Source: a virus. Taken from it: DNA of 64,000 bases. Shown here piece after piece: positions 34,687-48,014 of this stretch (within the stretch, counting starts at the first letter, position 1; every line of letters starts with the position of its first letter). The stretch lies in IMG/VR virus record IMGVR_UViG_3300046167_000417, positions 2,465 to 66,464 of that record. One strand, 5' to 3'. The notes beneath the pieces are model-generated. The model was not told the DNA's origin. It did no database searches and saw nothing but the letters and a program-made list of their open reading frames with translations. Made by a program: the position numbers and the translations under genes.

Positions 34687-37161
34687 CTATCCAATTTTCT
34701 CAACAAGAACTCTTATTCCACCTGCTGGGAACGAGTTTCCTGATATAAGAACAGCATTTACACTTGTTCTATCTACACATGCATGAACTGTTTCTTTAGT
34801 AGTGTTGTCAAATAACTGCACTGAAACATCGTAAGAATTTAAATTATGTGTAACTGATCCAAATGCGCTTAATGTAGCGGCGTGACCAGAAGCTTGTCTA
34901 GCATAGTTCGATACAGCATCAATTGTAGTTGTGTTGTTTGTATCTGTGTCAACGTTATAGTATATTAACTTATCAGCAGCTACTATTGTTGAACTTGATG
35001 TACCTTTAATATCAAGACCAACTTTTGGTATAGGACCTGTACTACTTGTTACTATAATACCTTTTTCATCATTAGTTGTTGAAGCTTGTACAGCTGTAAC
35101 ATCACCTTGTGGTATAGCTGGAAAAGTAACTAAATTACCCTCACCATTTATGTACTGGCTAGAAGAACCAACAACATCTATATCAATAGCCGGTGCTGTG
35201 GTTGGATTACCAACGCTTACAGTAAACGCATTCCCTTCATGTGAAGCACTAACGTTAGTCACTGTACCTCCTGAGTTGTTGTCTGACCAAGGTACGTTAA
35301 CTACTAAGTTATCTCCTGAATCAACTTGAATCTTATATGTTCTATTTGTATTTGATGATGAGCTATTTGCTGCGACAGTTTGTGTTCCGTCTACGTTTGC
35401 GTTTATAGTATTTCCTGACAAGCTTAAACCTGTACCTGCAGCTCTTTGTGTGTTTGTATCTGTTGATGTTATAGTTAAAGTATCTCCAGCTACAGAGGTA
35501 GTAACGTTTGCGCCACCTGTTATAGTTAGCGTATCATTGTTATTATCTGCAACCGCTGTACCTGAATCAGATGCTACGTTTTTAAATATGTTCTGACTTG
35601 ATCCTCTATCTAAGTTTGTTAATGTAGCTGTACCTGCTGAGTATGTAACACCTATTTGGTTAGATGTTCCGTTTACATTACCTAAACCAACTGTTGTTAA
35701 TGTCGCTAGATCTGTATCGGATTGAACAACTATAAAGTCGCCTTCAACAGAAGCTCCCGCTGCTGCAGCTGTTTGAACTATAACTGAATCACCAGGTGTT
35801 AAAGGTGTTGCGGCGTTTCCAAAGAAATTACCAGCAACTGTTACTACGTAGTAATCACCTACTGCAACTGCAACTCTACCGGCACCTGATGTTAAATTAC
35901 CACCACCGACTATTGCACCGGTACTGGCATTGAAACCACCCTTAAACTCTAATAAACCAGTTAATGAAGATTGCACGAAAGCAGTTGTTGCTATTTTAGT
36001 AGAACTATCACCAGAATTTGGTGTTATAACATAACCATAACCAGAACCGTCTCTTGCTACAATTTTATTTGCTGTAGCCGCGACTGTTGCTTCAACATCA
36101 AGCTCAACTGAGCCAGAAGCTCCACCGCCAGTTAAATAATCTCCAGCTACTACTTCAGTTATGTCACCTTGAGGTATTGCTGGGAAAGTAACTCTATCAC
36201 CTTCACCATTTACATATTCAGAAGAAGTTCCTTGCCATACACCTGTCATGGTTGTTGAACCAGACCCTGTAACTGTGTTTGAAACTACATTTAAAGCAGT
36301 ACCGTCTGTTTTAAAGTTAACAGCCGTTACACCAGATACTGTTCCTGCTGGAGCAAATGGTAAGTCAGAAACTAAACCTCTTTTAACAGCATCACTAGCG
36401 GAAGAATCTCCATATATAATAATATCAGCTGTGTTTATAGCAGTTCCTTCAGCGTCTGGGGCTTTAACCACAACGTTGTTTGTACCTGTATATTCTACGT
36501 TTACTTCTGGAGTTGCCGTAGATCCGTCATCTATTCTAATACCATCACCAGCGTCTACACCTGTTACATCACCTACAGCAGATATAGTAACCGCACCTGT
36601 TGATCCACTTATAGATATATTAGAACCAGCTACAATACTTGTTACACCTGAGTTTGTTATTGTTAATGTATTTGGAGATGCAGCTGCATCAGCTAATGAA
36701 ATTCCTGTACCGCTAATAAAGTTTACAACTTCACCGTCAACCATATCAATAGCAGTTCCACCATCTGTTTGGTATTGCCATTTAGTATATGCTCCTGCTG
36801 GAGTTGCCCATACATTATCACCTCTTAAAAACTTAGTAGCACTAGGCGTACCAGTAGCAGAAAGATCCGCTGTTGTTGTTATTGCTCCTGAGGTTGCATT
36901 TTGAGTTATGTCTATAAAAGTACCGTCAGTTGGTGTTAAACTTATAACCCCAGATCCTGAACCATCCATTTCTACCCAAGCACTTCCGTTGTAAAAGTAC
37001 ATTTTTTTATCACCAACAGTAGTATCATAGTACATTTGACCTTCAACAGGTGAAGATGGTTGGCTTGCTGAGTTTTCAATTACCGGTTCCAGTAACTGGT
37101 TTTTATTCATCTCGATGTTTGATCCAACCATTCCGATTGAACAGTAATAATTAATAGGCAT
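34687..37161 (-). CDS. Tail fibre-like protein (824 aa)
   Basis: Beta-rich repeats, KIATTAFV, VTHNLNS C-terminus. Confidence 0.75.
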   Translation of the reverse strand: MPINYYCSIGMVGSNIEMNKNQLLEPVIENSASQPSSPVEGQMYYDTTVGDKKMYFYNGSAWVEMDGSGSGVISLTPTDGTFIDITQNATSGAITTTADLSATGTPSATKFLRGDNVWATPAGAYTKWQYQTDGGTAIDMVDGEVVNFISGTGISLADAAASPNTLTITNSGVTSIVAGSNISISGSTGAVTISAVGDVTGVDAGDGIRIDDGSTATPEVNVEYTGTNNVVVKAPDAEGTAINTADIIIYGDSSASDAVKRGLVSDLPFAPAGTVSGVTAVNFKTDGTALNVVSNTVTGSGSTTMTGVWQGTSSEYVNGEGDRVTFPAIPQGDITEVVAGDYLTGGGASGSVELDVEATVAATANKIVARDGSGYGYVITPNSGDSSTKIATTAFVQSSLTGLLEFKGGFNASTGAIVGGGNLTSGAGRVAVAVGDYYVVTVAGNFFGNAATPLTPGDSVIVQTAAAAGASVEGDFIVVQSDTDLATLTTVGLGNVNGTSNQIGVTYSAGTATLTNLDRGSSQNIFKNVASDSGTAVADNNNDTLTITGGANVTTSVAGDTLTITSTDTNTQRAAGTGLSLSGNTINANVDGTQTVAANSSSSNTNRTYKIQVDSGDNLVVNVPWSDNNSGGTVTNVSASHEGNAFTVSVGNPTTAPAIDIDVVGSSSQYINGEGNLVTFPAIPQGDVTAVQASTTNDEKGIIVTSSTGPIPKVGLDIKGTSSSTIVAADKLIYYNVDTDTNNTTTIDAVSNYARQASGHAATLSAFGSVTHNLNSYDVSVQLFDNTTKETVHACVDRTSVNAVLISGNSFPAGGIRVLVEKIG

Positions 37162-37180
37162 AATTTATTTTTTTGTTTTG

Positions 37181-37885
37181 TTAGTTTAAAAATGAAGACC
37201 CCGTGACAGGTATGTCAAAGTCTACTGTTATTGTTGTTGCGTTAGTATAATCAATACAACCAAATATAACTTGATCTTGCGCATTCACAAGTGTTACAGA
37301 TGGTTCTGCTTTACCAGTTGTGTTATTTATCACCCATTGGTTAGATGATCCAAAGTCCTGTCTTATACTTACTCCAGAGCCTCCAGTTATATCAAAATGA
37401 ATTAAAGTATATTGTGTGCCTTCTGTAGCTACGGTACCATTACCTCCTATGTATGTTAAGGTTGCGATATAGTAACTACTTGTTTGTGGGTCTACGACAT
37501 AAGTATCCAATGTGTAATGACCAAATTGGCTTATTTGATCACCTTGACCTAATAATATAGGTTTACCCGTTATATATTCTAAAAACTTAACTACGTTTTG
37601 TCCGTTTAGTTCTTTAGTAGATATTCTTATTTGAGTTAAATTGTTAAAGCTAGAGCCAGAACCACCACCACCTGTTTTAGATATAGTGCCAACACCGCCA
37701 TTTTGAGTATCTGACCATTTAAAAGACATTTGCCCACCGATGTTTACTTTAGCGTTTAAGTTTAAGTAATTAGCTACAGCGGAAGCTGTAAACTGTCTGG
37801 TTAATCTATTTGTGGCTTCAGTTCCTATCCACGCATCATTATCCGAAATTACTGTATCAAATGGATACGAACTTATTCTTGCCAT
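37181..37885 (-). CDS. Putative virion/tail-associated protein
   Basis: ORF upstream of the fibre genes; MARISSYP start. Confidence 0.6.
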   Translation of the reverse strand: MARISSYPFDTVISDNDAWIGTEATNRLTRQFTASAVANYLNLNAKVNIGGQMSFKWSDTQNGGVGTISKTGGGGSGSSFNNLTQIRISTKELNGQNVVKFLEYITGKPILLGQGDQISQFGHYTLDTYVVDPQTSSYYIATLTYIGGNGTVATEGTQYTLIHFDITGGSGVSIRQDFGSSNQWVINNTTGKAEPSVTLVNAQDQVIFGCIDYTNATTITVDFDIPVTGSSFLN

Positions 37886-37888
37886 GTG

Positions 37889-38380
37889 TTATTTGTATAT
37901 TCTTATTTCTATCATTCCGTTTGTAACGTCATCTACAAAGCTACCATCAGCATTGTCTATATTGGTAACTCTTATGTAGTTTGGTCCAGCTGTTTTTATA
38001 CTAACAGACTTTGACCCTGTAGAAGCAGGTGTAGAAATTCCCTTGTCTTCCCATGCAGAAACTGTTGCATATACTTTTTCTGTAAAACTAGCAGAAGCTG
38101 TTAAGTCATAAGAACCTATACCCAGTCTTGTCCAAGTCCATGTTAGACCTGTTGTGTTTTGTAGTATGTTTGACACCGGTACACCTGAACTTCCTTGTTG
38201 ACTCCACCTAGCTACATACGTTGTGTAGGCAGCTGTTGGATTAGCAAATCCTGCTATCGAGCTTACTGTAAAGTTTGTGGTGGTTGGCTGGTCGTCTGTG
38301 TTGGGTAGAGGTACACTTGTTCCAAGCAGTAGGTCATTTACCTTAGGTGTTCCTGTTGGGTACGCTGTTATGTTAGCCAT
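37889..38380 (-). CDS. Putative virion/tail-associated protein
   Basis: ORF; MANITAYP start resembles the neighbouring gene. Confidence 0.6.
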   Translation of the reverse strand: MANITAYPTGTPKVNDLLLGTSVPLPNTDDQPTTTNFTVSSIAGFANPTAAYTTYVARWSQQGSSGVPVSNILQNTTGLTWTWTRLGIGSYDLTASASFTEKVYATVSAWEDKGISTPASTGSKSVSIKTAGPNYIRVTNIDNADGSFVDDVTNGMIEIRIYK

Positions 38381-38708
38381 TTAGTTGTTTTTTTCTTGTT
38401 CTTATATATTATATATACTTACACAATTACTTCTTTTTTTACATAGGGTGTGACACTAGCCCCTTACTTATATCTCTTATAAGGCTTATGTCCTGTTTTT
38501 AAAAAATCGTTACGTATATAGGGGTATAGCACTGCCCCCTTTCTTTCACTAGCCAAACTCTCAGGAAAATGCAATTTATTTCGCCGGGCCCCCATTGTTT
38601 TCTAGCTTTCCAGCGTATATATACGAACTTTTGCTGGCCCCCTCCCCCTATATTTAGACTTTTTTCTCTAATTTTTCACATGCTATTCTATATATTTAAA
38701 GAGATTTT

Positions 38709-38741
38709 ACACAAGAAATACAGAATCAGTTTGATAATATA
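38709..38741 (+). promoter_or_regulatory. Early-region motif copy 1 (ACA-N4-AAATAC-N11-GATAATAYA)
   Basis: Exact consensus match upstream of ORF 38781. Confidence 0.75.
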
Positions 38742-38780
38742 TATGTAACTAAAATACTAATAACAATTAAACTAAACAAT

Positions 38781-38852
38781 ATGCTATTACTTGTCATCGC
38801 ACTACCAATCGCTCTCATCGCTACATTCCTTAGATCTGGAAACAATAGCTAA
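38781..38852 (+). CDS. Hydrophobic micropeptide (23 aa)
   Basis: MLLLVIALPIALIATFLRSGNNS after motif copy 1 and an A-rich leader. Confidence 0.4.
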   Translation: MLLLVIALPIALIATFLRSGNNS

Positions 38853-38860
38853 TCGCTAAG

Positions 38861-38943
38861 TGACACATTGTCATGACATTACAAAGTATAATACTTATAA
38901 TAGTATATGACACAATGACACACTGTGGTATGACATAACGACA
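38861..38943. repeat. Cluster of TGACA pentamers (direct and inverted)
   Basis: TGACA at 38861, 38874, 38908, 38916, 38931; TGTCA at 38869; CGACA at 38939. Confidence 0.6.
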
Positions 38944-38975
38944 TATTAAACAACTAAACAAACATACACATTTAT

Positions 38976-39008
38976 ACATACAAAATACAAAACACAATTG
39001 ATAATATA
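38976..39008 (+). promoter_or_regulatory. Early-region motif copy 2
   Basis: ACA-taca-AAATAC-N11-GATAATATA. Confidence 0.75.
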
Positions 39009-39056
39009 AATGTAACTAAATAACTAAATAATAATAATAACTTAAATATCTTAACT

Positions 39057-39284
39057 ATGCAAAATTTAAATTCAAAAAGATTTGTAATCAGAAAATCTTT
39101 AATCGGCAAAAACACTACAATCAATGTAGTATTCACTAACGGCAAAACTGTCACTTACAATCACGATAAAGTGTATGAAGTAATGAAGTCTAAATTAGAC
39201 ACTATGAACTGCTGGCACAAGTATAAATCATATACTTCTTCAACTAGCGTTCCAGTAATCTGTCGTGAAGTAGTAGAAAAATAG
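39057..39284 (+). CDS. Hypothetical early protein (75 aa)
   Basis: ORF after motif copy 2, followed by a hairpin. Confidence 0.7.
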   Translation: MQNLNSKRFVIRKSLIGKNTTINVVFTNGKTVTYNHDKVYEVMKSKLDTMNCWHKYKSYTSSTSVPVICREVVEK

Positions 39285-39305
39285 TATACTACTTCAAATA
39301 CAAAC

Positions 39306-39381
39306 AGACATAACGGTTTCACTCTGCATTTTGACTACGTGAGCTCTACTTTGTGAGGTGGTTCGATTCCACTAATGTCTA
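39306..39381 (+). ncRNA. tRNA-like element 1 (acceptor stem and T arm, non-canonical middle)
   Basis: AGACAT/ATGTCT stem, GGTGG-TTCGATT-CCACT, then A-CTAA. Confidence 0.65.
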
Positions 39382-39405
39382 CTAATAACTAATAATAATA
39401 TAAAT

Positions 39406-39585
39406 ATGAACAGAAAATTTATTCACTACGTACTAATCAAAATAACAGACATCGCTATTAAAGGATTTATAGCATCACTTGCAACCTTAGCCTTTGGCGG
39501 AATAGCTTACTTCATCTTCATGATGATAACAGGTCAAGTAGATTACTCAGCGATGGATTCTATTCCATGTGGAATATGTAAATAA
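39406..39585 (+). CDS. Small membrane protein (59 aa)
   Basis: One hydrophobic helix, C-terminal CGIC. Confidence 0.55.
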   Translation: MNRKFIHYVLIKITDIAIKGFIASLATLAFGGIAYFIFMMITGQVDYSAMDSIPCGICK

Positions 39586-39589
39586 GTTC

Positions 39590-39622
39590 ACACAGTAAAT
39601 ACAATATCTATATGATAATATA
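39590..39622 (+). promoter_or_regulatory. Early-region motif copy 3
   Basis: ACA-cagt-AAATAC-N11-GATAATATA. Confidence 0.75.
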
Positions 39623-39627
39623 ATAAA

Positions 39628-39768
39628 ATGAAACGTATAAAATACATATCGCTCTTATCACTCTGGCTACAAAGTAACCATGAAATACTACCAGTTCTTC
39701 CACAAGAATTACTCGATGAAGTATATGTATACCAACGCTTCCAAACTAAACTAATTAATAATCTTTAA
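39628..39768 (+). CDS. Small hypothetical protein (46 aa)
   Basis: ORF directly after motif copy 3. Confidence 0.5.
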   Translation: MKRIKYISLLSLWLQSNHEILPVLPQELLDEVYVYQRFQTKLINNL

Positions 39769-39780
39769 AACAATATAACT

Positions 39781-39900
39781 ATGTCTACATTTTCATACAC
39801 ATTACTAAAAATATCTTGGCGACTATACGACAAGCATTACACTAAATTAACTGACGAGCAAAAGTCTAAAGTTATGGATATCTACTACGATTTCTACTAG
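39781..39900 (+). CDS. Small hypothetical protein (39 aa)
   Basis: ORF with A-rich leader. Confidence 0.5.
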   Translation: MSTFSYTLLKISWRLYDKHYTKLTDEQKSKVMDIYYDFY

Positions 39901-39958
39901 TGTACATAAAGGTGACTATCCGAACCTGCGGGCAACGAGCTTAACTGGATAGAACAAA

Positions 39959-39999
39959 AGACATAATGGTTAACGTGAGTTCGATTCTCACCATGTCTA
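39959..39999 (+). ncRNA. tRNA-like element 2 (41-nt minimal top half)
   Basis: AGACATA-ATGGTTAAC-GTGAG-TTCGATT-CTCAC-CATGTCT-A-CTAA. Confidence 0.7.
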
Positions 40000-40028
40000 C
40001 TAATAATAACTTTTAAAATAATAATACT

Positions 40029-40163
40029 ATGCAATTTATACTTACATGCCAAAACGGCAAGCAAATAGATATGTCAAGCGACGTACTAAAACAAATGAGC
40101 GGCGAGATAACTCGTGAAGACGTTCAAGAAAGAATAACCTTCTATCAAAATACTAATAAATAA
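40029..40163 (+). CDS. Small hypothetical protein (44 aa)
   Basis: ORF with A-rich leader. Confidence 0.55.
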   Translation: MQFILTCQNGKQIDMSSDVLKQMSGEITREDVQERITFYQNTNK

Positions 40164-40164
40164 T

Positions 40165-40296
40165 ATGGATTTACTAGACTACATTGACTGGAATGGAATA
40201 TGTGAAGATAATGATTTAAAATATGGTGATCTATCACCTCATCAATATCAACAACTAGAAATAATAATAAAAGAATTTATAAAACAAAATAAATAA
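40165..40296 (+). CDS. Small hypothetical protein (43 aa)
   Basis: ORF, tightly packed. Confidence 0.55.
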   Translation: MDLLDYIDWNGICEDNDLKYGDLSPHQYQQLEIIIKEFIKQNK

Positions 40297-40301
40297 TAAC
40301 T

Positions 40302-40562
40302 ATGGCTAAATACAGAAATGCAGAATATTTCCACAAAGAGTGGATTGCGTATAACGGCGAACATTGCTCAGCTTATACTTGTAACGACGTAGACTTACTA
40401 AGAGGCTACAACACAGTATCATTTCCTGCAAAAACAGAAGCAGAAATGAAAGAAAAAATAGATCACTACATAGATAATAGATCTAATATACTAAAAGGTC
40501 TCGAGCTAGAGCGTAAAGCAGCGGCTGTATTCTATCAAACCTTAGACTATAAAGGCGACTAA
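40302..40562 (+). CDS. Hypothetical protein
   Basis: ORF of 86 aa. Confidence 0.65.
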   Translation: MAKYRNAEYFHKEWIAYNGEHCSAYTCNDVDLLRGYNTVSFPAKTEAEMKEKIDHYIDNRSNILKGLELERKAAAVFYQTLDYKGD

Positions 40563-40563
40563 T

Positions 40564-40743
40564 ATGACTATGAGAGAACTAAGAGAAGTTTTTGGTCAAA
40601 AGGTGATCGACTTCACAATAAGTAAAGATCTATTATGTTATGATGAGATAATGGATAGAGATTACTTAGAGGAAAGAATAAGATTTTATGTAGATACACA
40701 ACAAATACAAATTGAGTTGGATAATACAAATGTAACAAATTAA
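40564..40743 (+). CDS. Small hypothetical protein (59 aa)
   Basis: ORF, tightly packed. Confidence 0.5.
   Translation: MTMRELREVFGQKVIDFTISKDLLCYDEIMDRDYLEERIRFYVDTQQIQIELDNTNVTN
40696..40728 (+). promoter_or_regulatory. Early-region motif copy 4
   Basis: ACA-caac-AAATAC-N11-GATAATACA. Confidence 0.7.
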
Positions 40744-40753
40744 CAAATAAACT

Positions 40754-40954
40754 ATGCTAAAATTAAAACAAGTCAATTCGACTACTATTAAAATCGACGG
40801 CAAAACCTACAAAGGTTATACTGTTGGCGATTTACCAAAAAGATTTGCTTTCATTTATAATGAAGAAAAAGATCAAGAAGGTATCACTGAGTTTTTCAAC
40901 TTCAAAGGTCTTACTTATGTTGAATATAACCCTTCAATATGGTCTTATGTCTAA
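40754..40954 (+). CDS. Hypothetical protein
   Basis: ORF of 66 aa. Confidence 0.65.
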   Translation: MLKLKQVNSTTIKIDGKTYKGYTVGDLPKRFAFIYNEEKDQEGITEFFNFKGLTYVEYNPSIWSYV

Positions 40955-41201
40955 TCCAAAAAACATGAAAGAAGCATGCCTCTATGTAGAACAGGCAAGA
41001 AAAAATCGTGGTCGCGAGCATAGGCGTGTCCACTCCCATGAAGTATGCGGCAGACTGACTGATAGCGAATGGCTGTCTGTAGTTACAAGGCAAAAGAAAA
41101 CGTTTGCTAAAGGTAAGACGTTTGCCCATACTGCAAGGTGGAATGATCACCACGAAAAGTGGGATTTAAAAACAGTAAAAAATAAATACAATAAACTATG
41201 A
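40947..41201 (+). CDS. Hypothetical basic protein
   Basis: Likely start ATG 40947 (MSNPKN). Confidence 0.6.
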   Translation: MSNPKNMKEACLYVEQARKNRGREHRRVHSHEVCGRLTDSEWLSVVTRQKKTFAKGKTFAHTARWNDHHEKWDLKTVKNKYNKL

Positions 41202-41317
41202 GTAAAATAAAAAACCCGTGGGATTTAGCCTACGAATTAAACAAAGATAATTATAGTAGAGCAGATATAGATGATATGTTGTTCTGTGAAGTAGAAGAAT
41301 TAATAAATCAAGAATAA
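41198..41317 (+). CDS. Small hypothetical protein (39 aa)
   Basis: ATGA overlap with the upstream gene. Confidence 0.55.
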   Translation: MSKIKNPWDLAYELNKDNYSRADIDDMLFCEVEELINQE

Positions 41318-41563
41318 ATGAAAGATAATATTAGAGTAAACGGATGGGACTTCGAGTATGTAAGTCAAGATGATGGTAACGACCAGTTTTACCAGTGTAG
41401 AGGTGAGGTAATGTATGATGACGAGCATGACCAAATACCTGAACCAGCGTTGTGGAATGCAGCGTTGAAGTTAGAAGAACAGTTAACCGAAGAAGGTTAT
41501 AGATGTGATGCAAATCATTCAGAAAAAGGTTGGGTTGAAGTAACAATATATAATAAGATATAA
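41318..41563 (+). CDS. Acidic hypothetical protein
   Basis: ORF of 81 aa. Confidence 0.65.
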   Translation: MKDNIRVNGWDFEYVSQDDGNDQFYQCRGEVMYDDEHDQIPEPALWNAALKLEEQLTEEGYRCDANHSEKGWVEVTIYNKI

Positions 41564-41564
41564 T

Positions 41565-41762
41565 ATGGAAAAAGTAAAAGACTATGTAGAAAGTGAATTA
41601 AAAATGTTAGATAGAGGTATTGTAGCCACACCTAATCAAGATTACCTTTTACAATTTACAGAAGCTAACAATGGAAGTAATGATTACTTACTAATGCAAA
41701 TGGCAAAAAACTATGGCTATAAAATAGCTTTATTAAATATAAAAGATAGATTTTATGAGTAG
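41565..41762 (+). CDS. Hypothetical protein
   Basis: ORF of 65 aa. Confidence 0.6.
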   Translation: MEKVKDYVESELKMLDRGIVATPNQDYLLQFTEANNGSNDYLLMQMAKNYGYKIALLNIKDRFYE

Positions 41763-41970
41763 AATGAAAGAAATAGACGAAATAGCACAAGGTATTGCTG
41801 ACGTCACTAAAGAATTAATGTATGATAGTATACATTGGCAAATAGCAGATCAACACGTTGAAGGTGATTCTTACAACGACTTGCACGATTATGTTATGGC
41901 TAAGGCTATTGAGTATATGTATTTATCTCAAGAGAGATTTCCACACAAACAAAATACGATTTCAAATTGA
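41755..41970 (+). CDS. Hypothetical protein
   Basis: ORF of 71 aa. Confidence 0.6.
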   Translation: MSRMKEIDEIAQGIADVTKELMYDSIHWQIADQHVEGDSYNDLHDYVMAKAIEYMYLSQERFPHKQNTISN

Positions 41971-41977
41971 TAATATA
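41945..41977 (+). promoter_or_regulatory. Early-region motif copy 5
   Basis: ACA-aaca-AAATAC-N11-GATAATATA. Confidence 0.75.
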
Positions 41978-42002
41978 AATGTAACTATTAAAATAATAAA
42001 CT

Positions 42003-42191
42003 ATGTATTGTAAATGCGGCACAGAAGTGCACCCTATCAGAATAAATTATGGCTATAAAACTTGTGTTCCTTGCAGCACTGTAGAAGATTACAGTTATAT
42101 TCCTATAATAAATCACAAGACAGGTAATACAATACAAGTTGTTAGCCAAGAAGTAAGTGCATCAGTGCACAGAGCTTGGCGACGTAAGTAG
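42003..42191 (+). CDS. Small Zn-finger protein
   Basis: CKCG...R...Y..CVPC (DksA/TraR-finger-like spacing). Confidence 0.65.
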   Translation: MYCKCGTEVHPIRINYGYKTCVPCSTVEDYSYIPIINHKTGNTIQVVSQEVSASVHRAWRRK

Positions 42192-42427
42192 ACTGTCGCT
42201 GTGTGTACTCAGGGAGGAGATGACACGGCAGGTCTAATAGCTACTGTGGAGGGATTAGTACGGCTACGGTATTTTAAGTAGTTAAGCTAACGAAGATCCT
42301 CTAAGGTAGTAAATAGCTAGACTAGTAGCTTAATTAGGTATGATTAAAGGCGAACGAAGATTAATTAGAAGCATCATTGCATCACCTTCTATTCGGCTCG
42401 ATGATTACACATAAGTGAATAGCTAGC
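42189..42427 (+). ncRNA. Structured non-coding RNA candidate (three consecutive stem domains)
   Basis: Closing helices 42189-93/42232-36, 42240-45/42305-10, 42316-20/42423-27; no ORF; higher GC than flanks. Confidence 0.55.
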
Positions 42428-42430
42428 GGG

Positions 42431-42511
42431 AACTAGGTCAGGTTAGAGACGCAAGACAGGCTTCGCGACTCGGGCTACCGACGGGTATGAGGTTCGAATC
42501 CTCACTAGTTA
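42431..42511 (+). ncRNA. tRNA-like element 3
   Basis: AACTAG/CTAGTT stem, TGAGG-TTCGAAT-CCTCA, then A-CTAA. Confidence 0.65.
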
Positions 42512-42515
42512 CTAA

Positions 42516-42599
42516 GCCCAGCGAATAAATAACAAACCTGCGTACTGGTTGAGTGTAACTAAATCAAGGTACCGGAGAGCGGTTAGGAAATGACTGGGT
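42516..42599 (+). ncRNA. Structured RNA between tRNA-like elements 3 and 4
   Basis: CCCAG/CTGGG closing stem; internal AACC/GGTT, GTAC/GTAC, TGGTT/AATCA pairings. Confidence 0.5.
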
Positions 42600-42600
42600 A

Positions 42601-42665
42601 GGACGTGAATGGTTAAACGTTATACAATATGTATTGTAGTGCGGGTTCGATTCCCGCCACGTCCA
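42601..42665 (+). ncRNA. tRNA-like element 4
   Basis: Perfect GGACGTG/CACGTCC stem, GCGGG-TTCGATT-CCCGC, A-CTAA; no D stem or canonical anticodon loop. Confidence 0.75.
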
Positions 42666-42671
42666 CTAATT

Positions 42672-42704
42672 ACAAATTAAATACGAATAAAAACTGATAA
42701 TATA
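42672..42704 (+). promoter_or_regulatory. Early-region motif copy 6
   Basis: ACA-aatt-AAATAC-N11-GATAATATA. Confidence 0.75.
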
Positions 42705-42713
42705 ATAAAACAA

Positions 42714-44248: not shown

Positions 44249-44321
44249 TGCGCGGTAGAGCAGCAGGTAGCTCGCTAGCCTCATAAGCTAGAGGTCGGAG
44301 GTTCGAGTCCTCCCTGCGCAC
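44249..44321 (+). tRNA. tRNA-Met(CAT), partly initiator-like, CCA not encoded
   Basis: Full cloverleaf: TGCGCGG/CTGCGCA, GAGC/GCTC, CTAGC-CTCATAA-GCTAG, TTCGAGT T loop (one T-stem mismatch). Confidence 0.85.
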
Positions 44322-44342
44322 CTAATATTTAAATAACAAACA

Positions 44343-45091: not shown

Positions 45092-45937
45092 ATGAAAATT
45101 AAACCAATGCTCGCATACAAAGTAGATGCAAAACCTATCGACTGGTCCGAGAATGTGTTTATGCAACCAAAACTTGACGGTGTAAGGTGTATAATACAGA
45201 CTGACGATCAAGGCAAAGTGATAGCTTATTCACGCACGGGTAAACCGTGGCTTAACATTAATCACATATTAAAAGATCTTAAACCTTTCTTCGATCAACA
45301 GCCAGACGTTATACTAGACGGTGAGCTGTATAATCATGATCTAAGAGATGATTTTGAACAAATAATATCATTAGTCAGAACTCAAAAACCAAGTCCTTAC
45401 GTGCGTTCTAAGTCTAAAAAATTAGTACAATTTCATTGTTACGATTATGCTAATGGTAGTGATAGTTATAAAACACGTATGGATAACCTAGCTGTAGCTA
45501 GTTTTTATTCTTATTGTGTAAAATATGTACCAACAAGCGTAGTTTATCACTATAATCACGCTCAATTAAAGCATGAAGCTTTTTTAGAACGAGGTTACGA
45601 AGGCTCTATACTGCGTTTAAATAAACCTTATGAACAAAAACGCTCTTATAGCTTACAAAAATTCAAGGATTTCCATGATGCTGAAGCTACAATAATTGGT
45701 TATGTTAAAGGTAAAGGTAAACGCACAGGAACGTTAGGTAAATTTATAATGAAAGATGATGAAGGTATAGAGTTCGGTTGCCCACCAGGTAAAGGATTCA
45801 ACTACAAAGATCTAACAAAAATACTTAACAATATTGATGACTATATAGGTCAACGTGCTACTTTTACTTATTTCGAACGTACTAAAGCTAATAGCTACAG
45901 GCATCCAATGTTTAAAACACTACGTAATTATGAGTAA
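45092..45937 (+). CDS. ATP-dependent DNA ligase
   Basis: KLDGVR, LDGELY, YEGSILR, KFKDF motifs. Confidence 0.92.
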   Translation: MKIKPMLAYKVDAKPIDWSENVFMQPKLDGVRCIIQTDDQGKVIAYSRTGKPWLNINHILKDLKPFFDQQPDVILDGELYNHDLRDDFEQIISLVRTQKPSPYVRSKSKKLVQFHCYDYANGSDSYKTRMDNLAVASFYSYCVKYVPTSVVYHYNHAQLKHEAFLERGYEGSILRLNKPYEQKRSYSLQKFKDFHDAEATIIGYVKGKGKRTGTLGKFIMKDDEGIEFGCPPGKGFNYKDLTKILNNIDDYIGQRATFTYFERTKANSYRHPMFKTLRNYE

Positions 45938-46637: not shown

Positions 46638-47266
46638 TGTCACAAGATAGAAACATGAAATGGTTAAATGATCGCAGGGTTTTGTATAGACGAGATCCAA
46701 TAAACGATAAGCCAACCAAAGAAACCGCTTTGTATAGCTACTATGAAAATGGTACATATGAATGTTATCACTTGTTTCGTAGCAAAGCAAAGATTACTAC
46801 TTATAGATCTTTAAAATGGCATTATTTAGTTTTGTACTATTTAAATCAAGACAGCGGCGGTGGATTGTTACCGTCGCATGTTTATGAGTTTATAGCAGAT
46901 AAAAATAATGGATTTGTAACGTTTTTTATAAGTGAAAAAAAGTTAAACGAAATGATAGATGATGTTTTTTTAATAGGTGGAGAACCACCAGTTAATAAGA
47001 AGCGTAAGATAATATTCAAGGAACATAGCGGTTTAACTCCTAACGAGAAGATGAGTATTGTAGGAAAATTAATAGGAAGATCAAGTAGAGTAGATGCAGA
47101 AGCTATATATCAAGCTATGTTAGATATATCTCACAGATATGAGAATATAACATGGTCAAAAATAGCAGGTATACTCGATTGTTCTACTAGAACAGTTCAA
47201 CGTAATTTAACAAAACAGTTAAGAGACGAAAAAGAAATATTAAACATGGAAAATGAAAAAATATAA
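46637..47266 (+). CDS. Protein with C-terminal HTH
   Basis: ITWSKIAGILDCSTRTVQRNL. Confidence 0.65.
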   Translation: MSQDRNMKWLNDRRVLYRRDPINDKPTKETALYSYYENGTYECYHLFRSKAKITTYRSLKWHYLVLYYLNQDSGGGLLPSHVYEFIADKNNGFVTFFISEKKLNEMIDDVFLIGGEPPVNKKRKIIFKEHSGLTPNEKMSIVGKLIGRSSRVDAEAIYQAMLDISHRYENITWSKIAGILDCSTRTVQRNLTKQLRDEKEILNMENEKI

Positions 47267-48014
47267 CATACAAAACTATATAAGATACAAAGAAGATGTT
47301 AAGACGTCTATAGCTAATCTAGAAGGTAAGTTTTACGATGAATACACGAGAAATGAACTTATAGTAAAGTTTATGCCTCTTGTAGAGAATTTAGCTCGTA
47401 AGTTTTCAACATCACAGCAAGCATCTGGTGTTTTAAGTATAAACGATTTACTTCAAATAGGTAATGAAGGATTAGTTAAAGCCGTAGATAAAATAGATTG
47501 GTCAATGATAGAAGAATCACCTGATGTTGAAAAAACACTAAAGTCTTTCTTATCAAAAAGAATCAAAGGTAATATAAGACGTAGGATAGACATAAACAGA
47601 GGTGATATAAGGATTCCAGAACACAAGATCAATGAAATGCGTAAGAATCCAAAAGACAAAAAGCTAGTAGAAATATTTTTTAATAGTATATTTATGTCTA
47701 TAGACGCTCAAGTTACTAATGATGATGAAGAAAACATGATATATCAAATAGCAGATAAATCTGAGCCTTATAATATTCAATTAATGAATATTTACTTAAA
47801 AGGTTTAATGAAAAAGCATTTAAATACCGAAGAGTACGAGGTGCTTAGATTGTCTTATGGTTTAGACTGTGATAAGTATTCTGCTAAAGAAATAGCTAAA
47901 GAATTAAATATAACAGGTGTAAGTGATTATGTGCGTGTTTCTGAGCTAAAAAAGAAAGCTGTACAGAAATTAATAGACAACGTAGATCACTCGCAAGTGC
48001 TTGATTATCTTTAA
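47253..48014 (+). CDS. Sigma-70 family RNA polymerase sigma factor
   Basis: Region 2 (PLVENLARKF...DLLQIGNEGLVKAVDK) and region 4 (VLRLSYGL...SAKEIAKEL). Confidence 0.85.
   Translation: MKKYNIQNYIRYKEDVKTSIANLEGKFYDEYTRNELIVKFMPLVENLARKFSTSQQASGVLSINDLLQIGNEGLVKAVDKIDWSMIEESPDVEKTLKSFLSKRIKGNIRRRIDINRGDIRIPEHKINEMRKNPKDKKLVEIFFNSIFMSIDAQVTNDDEENMIYQIADKSEPYNIQLMNIYLKGLMKKHLNTEEYEVLRLSYGLDCDKYSAKEIAKELNITGVSDYVRVSELKKKAVQKLIDNVDHSQVLDYL

Follow-up and report, generated by a model that had tools for sequence, protein, structure and literature searches.

We find that four short elements, E1 to E4, in the early region of a phage contig constitute one related family of anticodon-less RNAs that retain the top half of a tRNA, and comparison with relatives supports the view that they are under selection for structure. 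The elements lie in a stretch of 64,000 nt (the window) out of the 66,464 bases of IMG/VR record IMGVR_UViG_3300046167_000417, a single phage contig with a G+C content of 34%. Their layout is that of the tRNA-like domain (TLD) of transfer-messenger RNA (tmRNA), and our confidence in this part of the reading, the identity of the elements, is high. That RNase P and RNase Z would in addition cut the RNAs out, and that these would then serve as decoys in SmpB-dependent trans-translation, is a more tentative proposal, to which we give slightly less than an even chance.

Each element (Table 1) possesses an acceptor-like stem, a perfect 5-bp T stem around a 7-nt loop TTCGA(T/A)T, a discriminator A73 following the 3' acceptor strand and a CTAA trailer, as an earlier, sequence-only reading of this stretch had described and as renewed reading of the sequence confirmed. 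GGTT is present in the linker of all four; it had been placed 2–3 nt after the 5' acceptor strand, which fails for E3, where the distance is 4 nt. The description of elements without a D stem or an anticodon arm, and with middles of 9 to about 50 nt, stands on the sequence, ARAGORN and Rfam alike, and the middles hold no mRNA-like domain, resume codon, tag frame or pseudoknots. A reduced, stemless GG D-loop and a canonical T arm are kept across alignments A1 and A2 (the latter containing 38 copies of the class to which E4 belongs, class A), and the discriminator is invariant in A2 and at least 90% conserved in A1. Position 8 is A in E1, E2 and E4 (tRNA has U); this A8 is near-invariant in class A and is the same as in the Rfam tmRNA consensus. 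The acceptor stems of E1 to E3 have 6 bp and are unrelated to the 7-bp, G3:U70-bearing stem of tmRNA. The motif GTTCGAWTC occurs four times in the window against 0.35 expected (four or more in 0 of 100 shuffles), and all four elements are positioned between plus-strand open reading frames (ORFs) or within the ORF-free block 42192–42713.

Two standard searches, proposed at the outset with the expectation that they would yield pseudogene calls or none, gave no call on the elements: ARAGORN reported neither a tRNA nor a tmRNA at E1 to E4, its only call in the window being tRNA-Met, and Rfam at the gathering score likewise returned only this true tRNA-Met. The Rfam tRNA model (RF00005) had no match to E1 to E4 even at E up to 10, and YrlA had none in the window (18.6 bits against a gathering score of 69 in the related locus L022). 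Minimum free energies (MFE) compared with shuffles are weak except for E4 (z-scores of 0.07, –0.93, –1.10 and –3.37 for E1 to E4), so that the structural case rests on comparison with relatives.

Table 1. Positions of the four elements and of neighbouring features in the window
Feature	Position	Strand	Description
Promoter-like motif AAATACRA-N9-TTGATAATATAA	38983–39009	+	Heads the unit of E1
E1	39306–39385 with CTAA (element 39306–39381)	+	Class C variant; 6-bp acceptor AGACAT/ATGTCT; GG linker, then 35-nt insertion before the T arm (placement according to model R1); T arm GGTGG/CCACT, loop TTCGATT; discriminator A at 39381
Promoter-like motif, copy	39597–39623	+	E2 unit
Hairpin upstream of E2	39916–39952	+	Stem CTATCC/GGATAG, 25-nt loop; ends 6 nt before E2
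E2	39959–40003 with CTAA (element 39959–39999)	+	Class C minimal minihelix, 45 nt with trailer; 6-bp acceptor as in E1; A-C mismatch at 7:66; 9-nt linker ATGGTTAAC; 5-bp T arm GTGAG/CTCAC; discriminator A at 39999
Promoter-like motif, copy	41952–41978	+	E3 and E4 unit
Non-coding 5' cassette	42192–42430	+	After 62-aa ORF 42003–42191; leads into E3
E3	42431–42515 with CTAA (element 42431–42511)	+	Class B; acceptor AACTAG/CTAGTT; GG linker; middle of about 50 nt; conserved block GCTACCGACGGGTA; T arm TGAGG/CCTCA, loop TTCGAAT; discriminator A at 42511
84-nt module	42516–42599	+	Between E3 and E4; closing stem CCCAG...CTGGG; invariant AGCGAATAAATAAC inside
E4	42601–42669 with CTAA (element 42601–42665)	+	Class A; 7-bp acceptor GGACGTG/CACGTCC with A3:U70; 33-nt middle; linker AATGGTTAAAC; short hairpin at helix-2 position; T arm GCGGG/CCCGC; discriminator A at 42665
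Promoter-like motif, copy	42679–42705	+	Just after E4
tRNA-Met (CAT)	44249–44322	+	ARAGORN; Rfam tRNA 65.1 bits; trailer CTAA
DNA ligase	45092–45937	+	Near the elements; query for relatives

Relatives were collected through the nearby DNA ligase, which yielded 56 IMG/VR loci (57 sources with the window), and homologues of the elements were sought in them with a pairing-aware scan plus class-specific scans. Homologues occur in 48 of the 57 sources and form three classes, A, B and C; the nine sources without them are either loci cut short upstream of the ligase or three distant ligase loci (34% identity). In no relative are the homologues intact tRNAs, and ARAGORN calls none of them a tRNA. This removes the decayed-tRNA reading, and simple tRNA decay, an alternative that the sequence-only reading had itself raised, is rejected.

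For class A (48 copies in 45 of the 57 sources) the relationship to tmRNA can be read directly from a covariance model. RF00023, the Rfam tmRNA model, matches E4 end to end (model positions 1–374, with 303 middle positions deleted; 31.7 bits, E 5.2e-10) and aligns its hairpin to helix 2 with several non-canonical pairs; helix 2 is not alignable across class A copies. Two other copies are L001:969-1049, which at 60.8 bits passes the gathering score of 47, and L022:6977-7059 (L022a), which aligns to the model as E4 does (38.1 bits). In alignment A2 all 12 acceptor and T-stem pairs are 100% paired and four of them show compensatory change (at 4:69, for example, 24 copies have C-G, 7 have A-U and 7 have G-C). 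The covariation score is 0.341 against 0.087 in shuffled alignments (0 of 500 reach it) and does not exceed 0.071 with the partners slid. G3:U70 is present in 36 of these 38 copies, the exceptions being E4 and L022a, both with A3:U70. Considering the end-to-end matches together with this conservation, class A appears to be tmRNA reduced to its TLD, and E4 itself reads as a true TLD-only tmRNA homologue, without a message. The full Rfam tRNA model also gave a match at L022:6900-7056 (157 nt, 37.5 bits) that overlaps L022a; in a narrower search the tmRNA model wins, and the tRNA match is probably an artefact of insertion tolerance.

The class A 3' pattern was found in at least 119 stretches of IMG/VR. 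Among the 118 matches listed, 103 have a matching 5' strand within 450 nt (median length 83 nt), some are full-length tmRNA genes (e.g. L063, 339 nt with a tag frame) and 15 are 3' fragments without a 5' strand, which resemble attachment sites. The L063 gene (L063:3112-3454, minus strand) has a tag ending in ALAA, and its acceptor letters are those of one class A subgroup. ARAGORN called 38 tmRNAs among the 231 viral loci (L057 to L287) that came from two pattern scans. A scan of IMG/VR specific to E4 gave seven stretches, five of them chance matches in other contexts and two true copies (L427:113, minus strand, and L429:10394), in which E4 is identical to that of the window, A3:U70 included.

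Class C has 30 copies in 29 of the 57 sources. In a MAFFT alignment of 25 of its sequences 93.6% of cells are paired, compensatory changes occur in 11 of 11 modelled pairs (six in the acceptor and five in the T stem), and the covariation reaches 0.797 against 0.215 in shuffled alignments (0 of 500 as high), falling to at most 0.111 with the partners slid; the earlier suggestion that pairing is kept by selection is thereby upheld. The scan that supplied these copies admitted only paired T stems and took the best-pairing 5' strand, but the chosen strand directly abuts the conserved linker and so leaves little freedom in the choice. Pair 7:66 is unpaired in 19 of 23 scorable copies. The acceptor letters are near-free to vary, and the linker (consensus ATGGTT.AT) and T loop are conserved, a combination that elbow binding would require. 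E1 and E2 seem to be a TLD reduced still further, with no helix 2 left and no constraint on the acceptor letters, E1 (close homologues at L012:999-1074 and L014:657-714) being an insertion variant of E2. The class C pattern occurs in at least 118 stretches of IMG/VR, on contigs between 4 kb and 302 kb long. A perfect 5-bp T stem with a 6-bp acceptor is present in 94 of the 121 IMG/VR matches listed versus 13 of the 118 listed from prokaryote genome contigs, the other 105 of which are chance matches or belong to other contexts; these figures mark the class C element as widespread and enriched in viruses.

A covariance model built from the class C alignment (R1) connects the classes with one another. 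In the window it scores its training sequence E2 at 69.2 bits and also picks up E4 at 39.5 bits (E 3.7e-7) and E1 at 28.7 bits (E 1.7e-4), both over the full length and each with one insertion, at the same site between linker and T stem, where E4 has its hairpin, so that the notion of a single family, first put forward from the letters of the four copies, is supported. E3 is matched only in part (12.9 bits), no further copy was found by R1 in the window beyond E1 to E4, and the 56 loci gave 31 matches at E up to 0.001.

E3 would represent a third lineage, with a fixed acceptor sequence. Class B occurs in 16 of the 57 sources, with 16 copies, and the viral loci as a whole yield 29 distinct copies, in 28 of which AACTAGG stands 27–92 nt upstream of the T arm; the acceptor AACTAG/CTAGTT is invariant, with the reservation that the scan required CTAGTTAC. 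Since the acceptor does not vary and only one pair, in the T stem, covaries, the support for class B is conservation and not covariation. The class B pattern, limited to the 6-bp T-stem subtype, was found in at least 19 stretches.

E3 and E4 are accompanied by further structured modules. The cassette that leads into E3 contains no plus-strand ORF of 30 aa or more and has no Rfam match; blocks of it (e.g. AGCTAGACGAGTAGCTTAATTAG and ACATAAGTGAATAGCTAGC; alignment A3) are conserved in relatives, and it may be part of one larger RNA that ends in E3. It also contains several CTAG-containing repeats. The 84-nt module recurs in L009:7924, L028:7432, L068, L145, L410, L414, L417, L012, L013, L052, L087, L003 and L260, with compensatory letters in its closing stem (GTGCAG/CTGCAC versus CCCAG/CTGGG); RNAalifold gave no consensus structure for eight copies, the variable core having been left unaligned by MAFFT. 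A 13-nt core, GCGAATAAATAAC, occurs 17 times in the viral loci and the window, either between class B and class A or within the class A helix (L009, L028, L068 and L145), and where embedded it forms the tip of that helix, at the place where a tmRNA would carry its message. Read from GCG, the module holds a 3-codon frame ending in TAA, possibly by coincidence.

The earlier reading had noted a CTAA trailer in place of CCA on each mimic. It is indeed present on all four, but tRNA-Met shares it, as do 26 of the 34 ARAGORN tRNAs of the window and family loci, and elements and tRNAs have a C(T/A)A trailer in common; being frequent on true tRNAs, CTAA marks a shared 3' processing context and not a mimic-specific feature. 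In L015 a class B element, a class A element and tRNA-Met succeed one another at spacings of 4 to 8 nt, and in L427 and L429 the 84-nt module and the identical E4 are followed 4 nt on by tRNA-Met. In the window 1.6 kb of small ORFs lie between E4 and tRNA-Met, and one RNA-library contig joins 42516 to 44247. The array of elements and tRNAs looks modular and insertion-prone.

The proposed function draws on what has been published on tmRNA. According to a review (PMC3968760), the TLD is defined by an acceptor stem, a T arm and a reduced, stemless D-loop that must interact with the T loop if SmpB is to bind; the site bound by SmpB is the elbow, and alanylation by alanyl-tRNA synthetase (AlaRS) is specified by G3:U70 with A73. 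The mycobacteriophage DS6A encodes a TLD-only ('standard, no CDS') tmRNA (Hudson et al. 2014, PMC4131195; PMC11915505), and a DS6A-like molecule, chargeable or not, is reported to have inhibited E. coli tmRNA strongly, perhaps by titrating SmpB (PMC4131195 and PMC11915505, citing Mao et al. 2009).

Given the TLD layout of the elements and the DS6A precedent, we read the set as processed TLD-type RNAs that would sequester SmpB. From the sequences, the conserved structures, the family membership and the distribution, all of which are observed, we infer the following course of processing, SmpB binding and effect on the host. E1 to E4, whether genes in their own right or gene-like parts of early transcripts, would specify small RNAs of the tmRNA TLD design, in which the acceptor stem stacks on the T arm and the stemless GG D-loop docks on the T loop to form a tRNA elbow. 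Host RNase P would cut the 5' end and RNase Z would cut behind the discriminator A, in the manner expected of the nearby tRNA-Met, whose trailer is identical, and CCA would then be added. The resulting top-half RNAs may bind host SmpB at the elbow, the copies with G3:U70 also binding AlaRS and EF-Tu, and may in this way titrate or divert trans-translation, and with it ribosome rescue, early in infection. E4, which has A3:U70, would act uncharged, and class C would be the minimal, elbow-only form.

Several observations weigh against this proposal. E1, E2 and E3 have no tmRNA or tRNA match in Rfam even at E up to 10, and E4, at its 31.7 bits, falls below the RF00023 gathering score and lacks G3:U70. 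Class C, exemplified by E2, is without any helix 2, a form that SmpB may not bind; moreover, a tRNA gene lies within 500 nt of only 8 of the 121 class C pattern matches listed. The invariant acceptor of class B suggests a sequence-specific partner other than SmpB. E1 and E2 stand between ORFs in polycistronic early units with a hairpin just upstream, an arrangement that suits a cis-acting processing signal at least as well, and four decoys for one protein are not obviously needed. Among the 30 window ORFs scanned against Pfam or PHROGs there was no match to SmpB or to a tRNA enzyme, which is neutral for a decoy function.

The strongest alternative, which we regard as distinctly less probable than SmpB decoys yet as a serious contender, is that the elements punctuate transcripts: they would be cis-acting handles at which host RNase P and RNase Z cut early polycistronic transcripts at defined places, so that upstream RNAs would end in a protective 3' hairpin and the adjoining structured modules would be set free, the minihelix itself being a by-product. 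The two functions are compatible. Transfer RNA punctuation and the MALAT1–mascRNA arrangement provide tRNA-like cut sites in transcripts, mascRNA marking the RNase P cut that matures the upstream RNA, and recognition by RNase P and RNase Z is compatible with a free acceptor and a conserved elbow, as in class C. The genomic positions of the elements agree with such a role. A two-part, promoter-like motif (four exact matches in the window versus 0.00 expected, with a variant near 38716), often continued by ATGTAAC and in all copies upstream of plus-strand early ORFs, would be an early promoter; E1 and E2 lie between ORFs inside two units headed by it, and E3 and E4 stand at the end of a third, shortly ahead of the motif that follows. 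A looser promoter pattern was dropped, its count being inflated by AT-rich matches (31 against 15.7 expected), and scans for sigma-70 sites (34 against 33.0 expected) and terminators (5 against 2.8) were uninformative. In 29 of 30 class C copies the last paired base of the fold in the 70 nt upstream lies 0–10 nt from the element, the mean MFE of the flanks is –10.4 upstream versus –4.9 downstream, and in relatives the stem of the E2 hairpin keeps pairing with other letters (CTCACC/GGTGAG, CTCATC/GATGAG). In addition, the modules of 42192–42669 are a few nucleotides from the mimics, the 84-nt module being bounded by E3 and E4. Against punctuation, however, G3:U70 with A73 in 36 of 38 class A copies is an aminoacylation signal, needless for a mere cleavage site; the hairpins in front of the elements surpass shuffled sequences by no more than a modest margin (mean z –1.05 over 30 copies); and in L006 to L008 the motif lies directly upstream of hairpin and minihelix, which leaves little upstream RNA to protect.

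We consider it unlikely that the elements are decoys for other proteins that grip the top half of tRNA, such as defence toxins that target the acceptor or CCA, the CCA-adding enzyme or EF-Tu. Host defence toxins that modify or cleave the tRNA acceptor end or CCA do exist, and the virus enrichment, multiple copies and early location of the elements, the several classes with different acceptor stems in one genome and the invariant class B acceptor, as for a sequence-specific protein partner, would all fit. No defence system or partner has been pinpointed, though; the missing anticodon arm excludes anticodon nucleases, and the free acceptor letters of class C argue against a sequence-specific acceptor binder for that class. 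Non-functional remnants, be they decayed tRNA or tmRNA genes or attachment-site fragments of such host genes, are very improbable: the attachment-like 3' fragments among the class A matches and the loss of G3:U70 in E4 speak for them, but none of the four elements lacks either acceptor strand, compensatory changes affect all 11 modelled class C and four class A pairs, at least one element is kept in 48 of 57 related sources, the homologues are never intact tRNAs and no integrase was matched among the 30 ORFs scanned.

The elements stand at the start of the plus-strand early region of the contig. Structural genes occupy the minus strand up to 38380; small early ORFs run on the plus strand from about 38570 and are followed by replication genes (DNA ligase, sigma factor, Erf, exonuclease, primase-helicase, thymidylate synthase, MazG and ribonucleotide reductase). 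The phage-encoded RNA polymerase sigma factor (47253–48014; PHROG 351, E 1.5e-24), whose gene lies downstream of the early region, may act at middle or late promoters. At least half of the sampled words of the stretch are contained in 16 public runs that carry the label seawater or marine metagenome and include two possible sources of it, and part of the stretch is present in 20 of 24 listed runs from 18 studies, all seawater or marine metagenomes. Against 50,697 phage records blastn gave a sole match, of 149 nt at 70.6% to Flavobacterium phages and inside an ORF, and the elements matched nothing. The host lineage would be marine and apparently of Bacteroidota type, as suggested by this weak match, by leaders without Shine-Dalgarno sequences and by the likeness of the L063 tmRNA acceptor letters to one class A subgroup. 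Assembled contigs from four RNA-library runs span the region (e.g. 37000–42136 and 41856–42504), but transcription, strand and ends cannot be read from contigs, and DNA carry-over is possible. In two metatranscriptomes the summed depth is higher over 41816–42417 and loose ends occur at 42512, which related strains explain most simply and which we do not use as evidence.

Considering the novelty of these RNAs, the phrase 'undescribed system' of the sequence-only reading was too strong for E4: its kind is already published for DS6A and is not new, and its family matches an existing Rfam family, as E1 to E3 do not. Both RNAs are phage-encoded, and class A relatives of E4 keep G3:U70 and A73, one of them passing the Rfam threshold; E4, by comparison, has A3:U70, lies below that threshold, would belong to a different host lineage and shares its array with three related elements and with further structured modules, and it is by description, not by sequence, that we liken the two. 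In the 2025 tmRNA database just 9 sequences overall are classed as 'standard, no CDS', and 79 are from phages (PMC11915505); full-length tmRNAs are found by ARAGORN in about 2.3% of phage genomes (PMC9004378). CDS-less tmRNAs are also known from jakobid mitochondria and from plastids (about 65 bp) (PMC11915505, PMC3590771). These organellar RNAs are similar in size to the elements (about 65 nt) and have likewise lost the mRNA-like domain and kept the TLD, but they co-occur with SmpB and presumably serve rescue, whereas the elements described here are viral, multi-copy and mostly without alanine identity. Full-length phage tmRNAs resemble E1 to E4 in being phage-borne, ssrA-derived, often early and near tRNA genes; they keep the tag frame and pseudoknots and can complete trans-translation, which E1 to E4 cannot.

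A stacked acceptor and T arm also serves as a minimal substrate or mimic for tRNA enzymes in synthetic acceptor–T-arm minihelices, MALAT1 mascRNA and bacterial Y-RNA modules, to which E1 to E4 add a GG D-loop analogue that would form the elbow. Classes C and B have no Rfam family, and our literature search found no paper describing non-alanine phage minihelix families, so these conserved, virus-enriched families appear to be undescribed.

In its broadest form, which we think possible but clearly less probable than SmpB decoys as such, the proposal is that of a modular phage RNA toolkit, in which TLD-only mini-tmRNAs and undescribed, virus-enriched elbow-only minihelices of about 45 nt, without aminoacylation identity, would be excised by host enzymes and shut down or re-route SmpB–tmRNA rescue or another factor that binds the top half. 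Were this so, an RNA-only anti-host system would have been overlooked by tRNA and tmRNA finders. Independently of function, neither ARAGORN nor the curated Rfam thresholds call any of E1 to E4, and the class A and class C patterns are found in at least 119 and 118 IMG/VR stretches, respectively, so that a common class of phage small RNAs is being missed. The 45-nt class C element, with its 11 covarying pairs, is a natural minimal object for studies of RNase P, RNase Z and the CCA enzyme and of the elbow requirement of SmpB. Finally, if the elements do act as decoys for SmpB, many phages would disturb ribosome rescue with RNA alone, and would do so through a graded series that runs from full tmRNA by way of the alanine-accepting and the uncharged TLD to the bare elbow minihelix.

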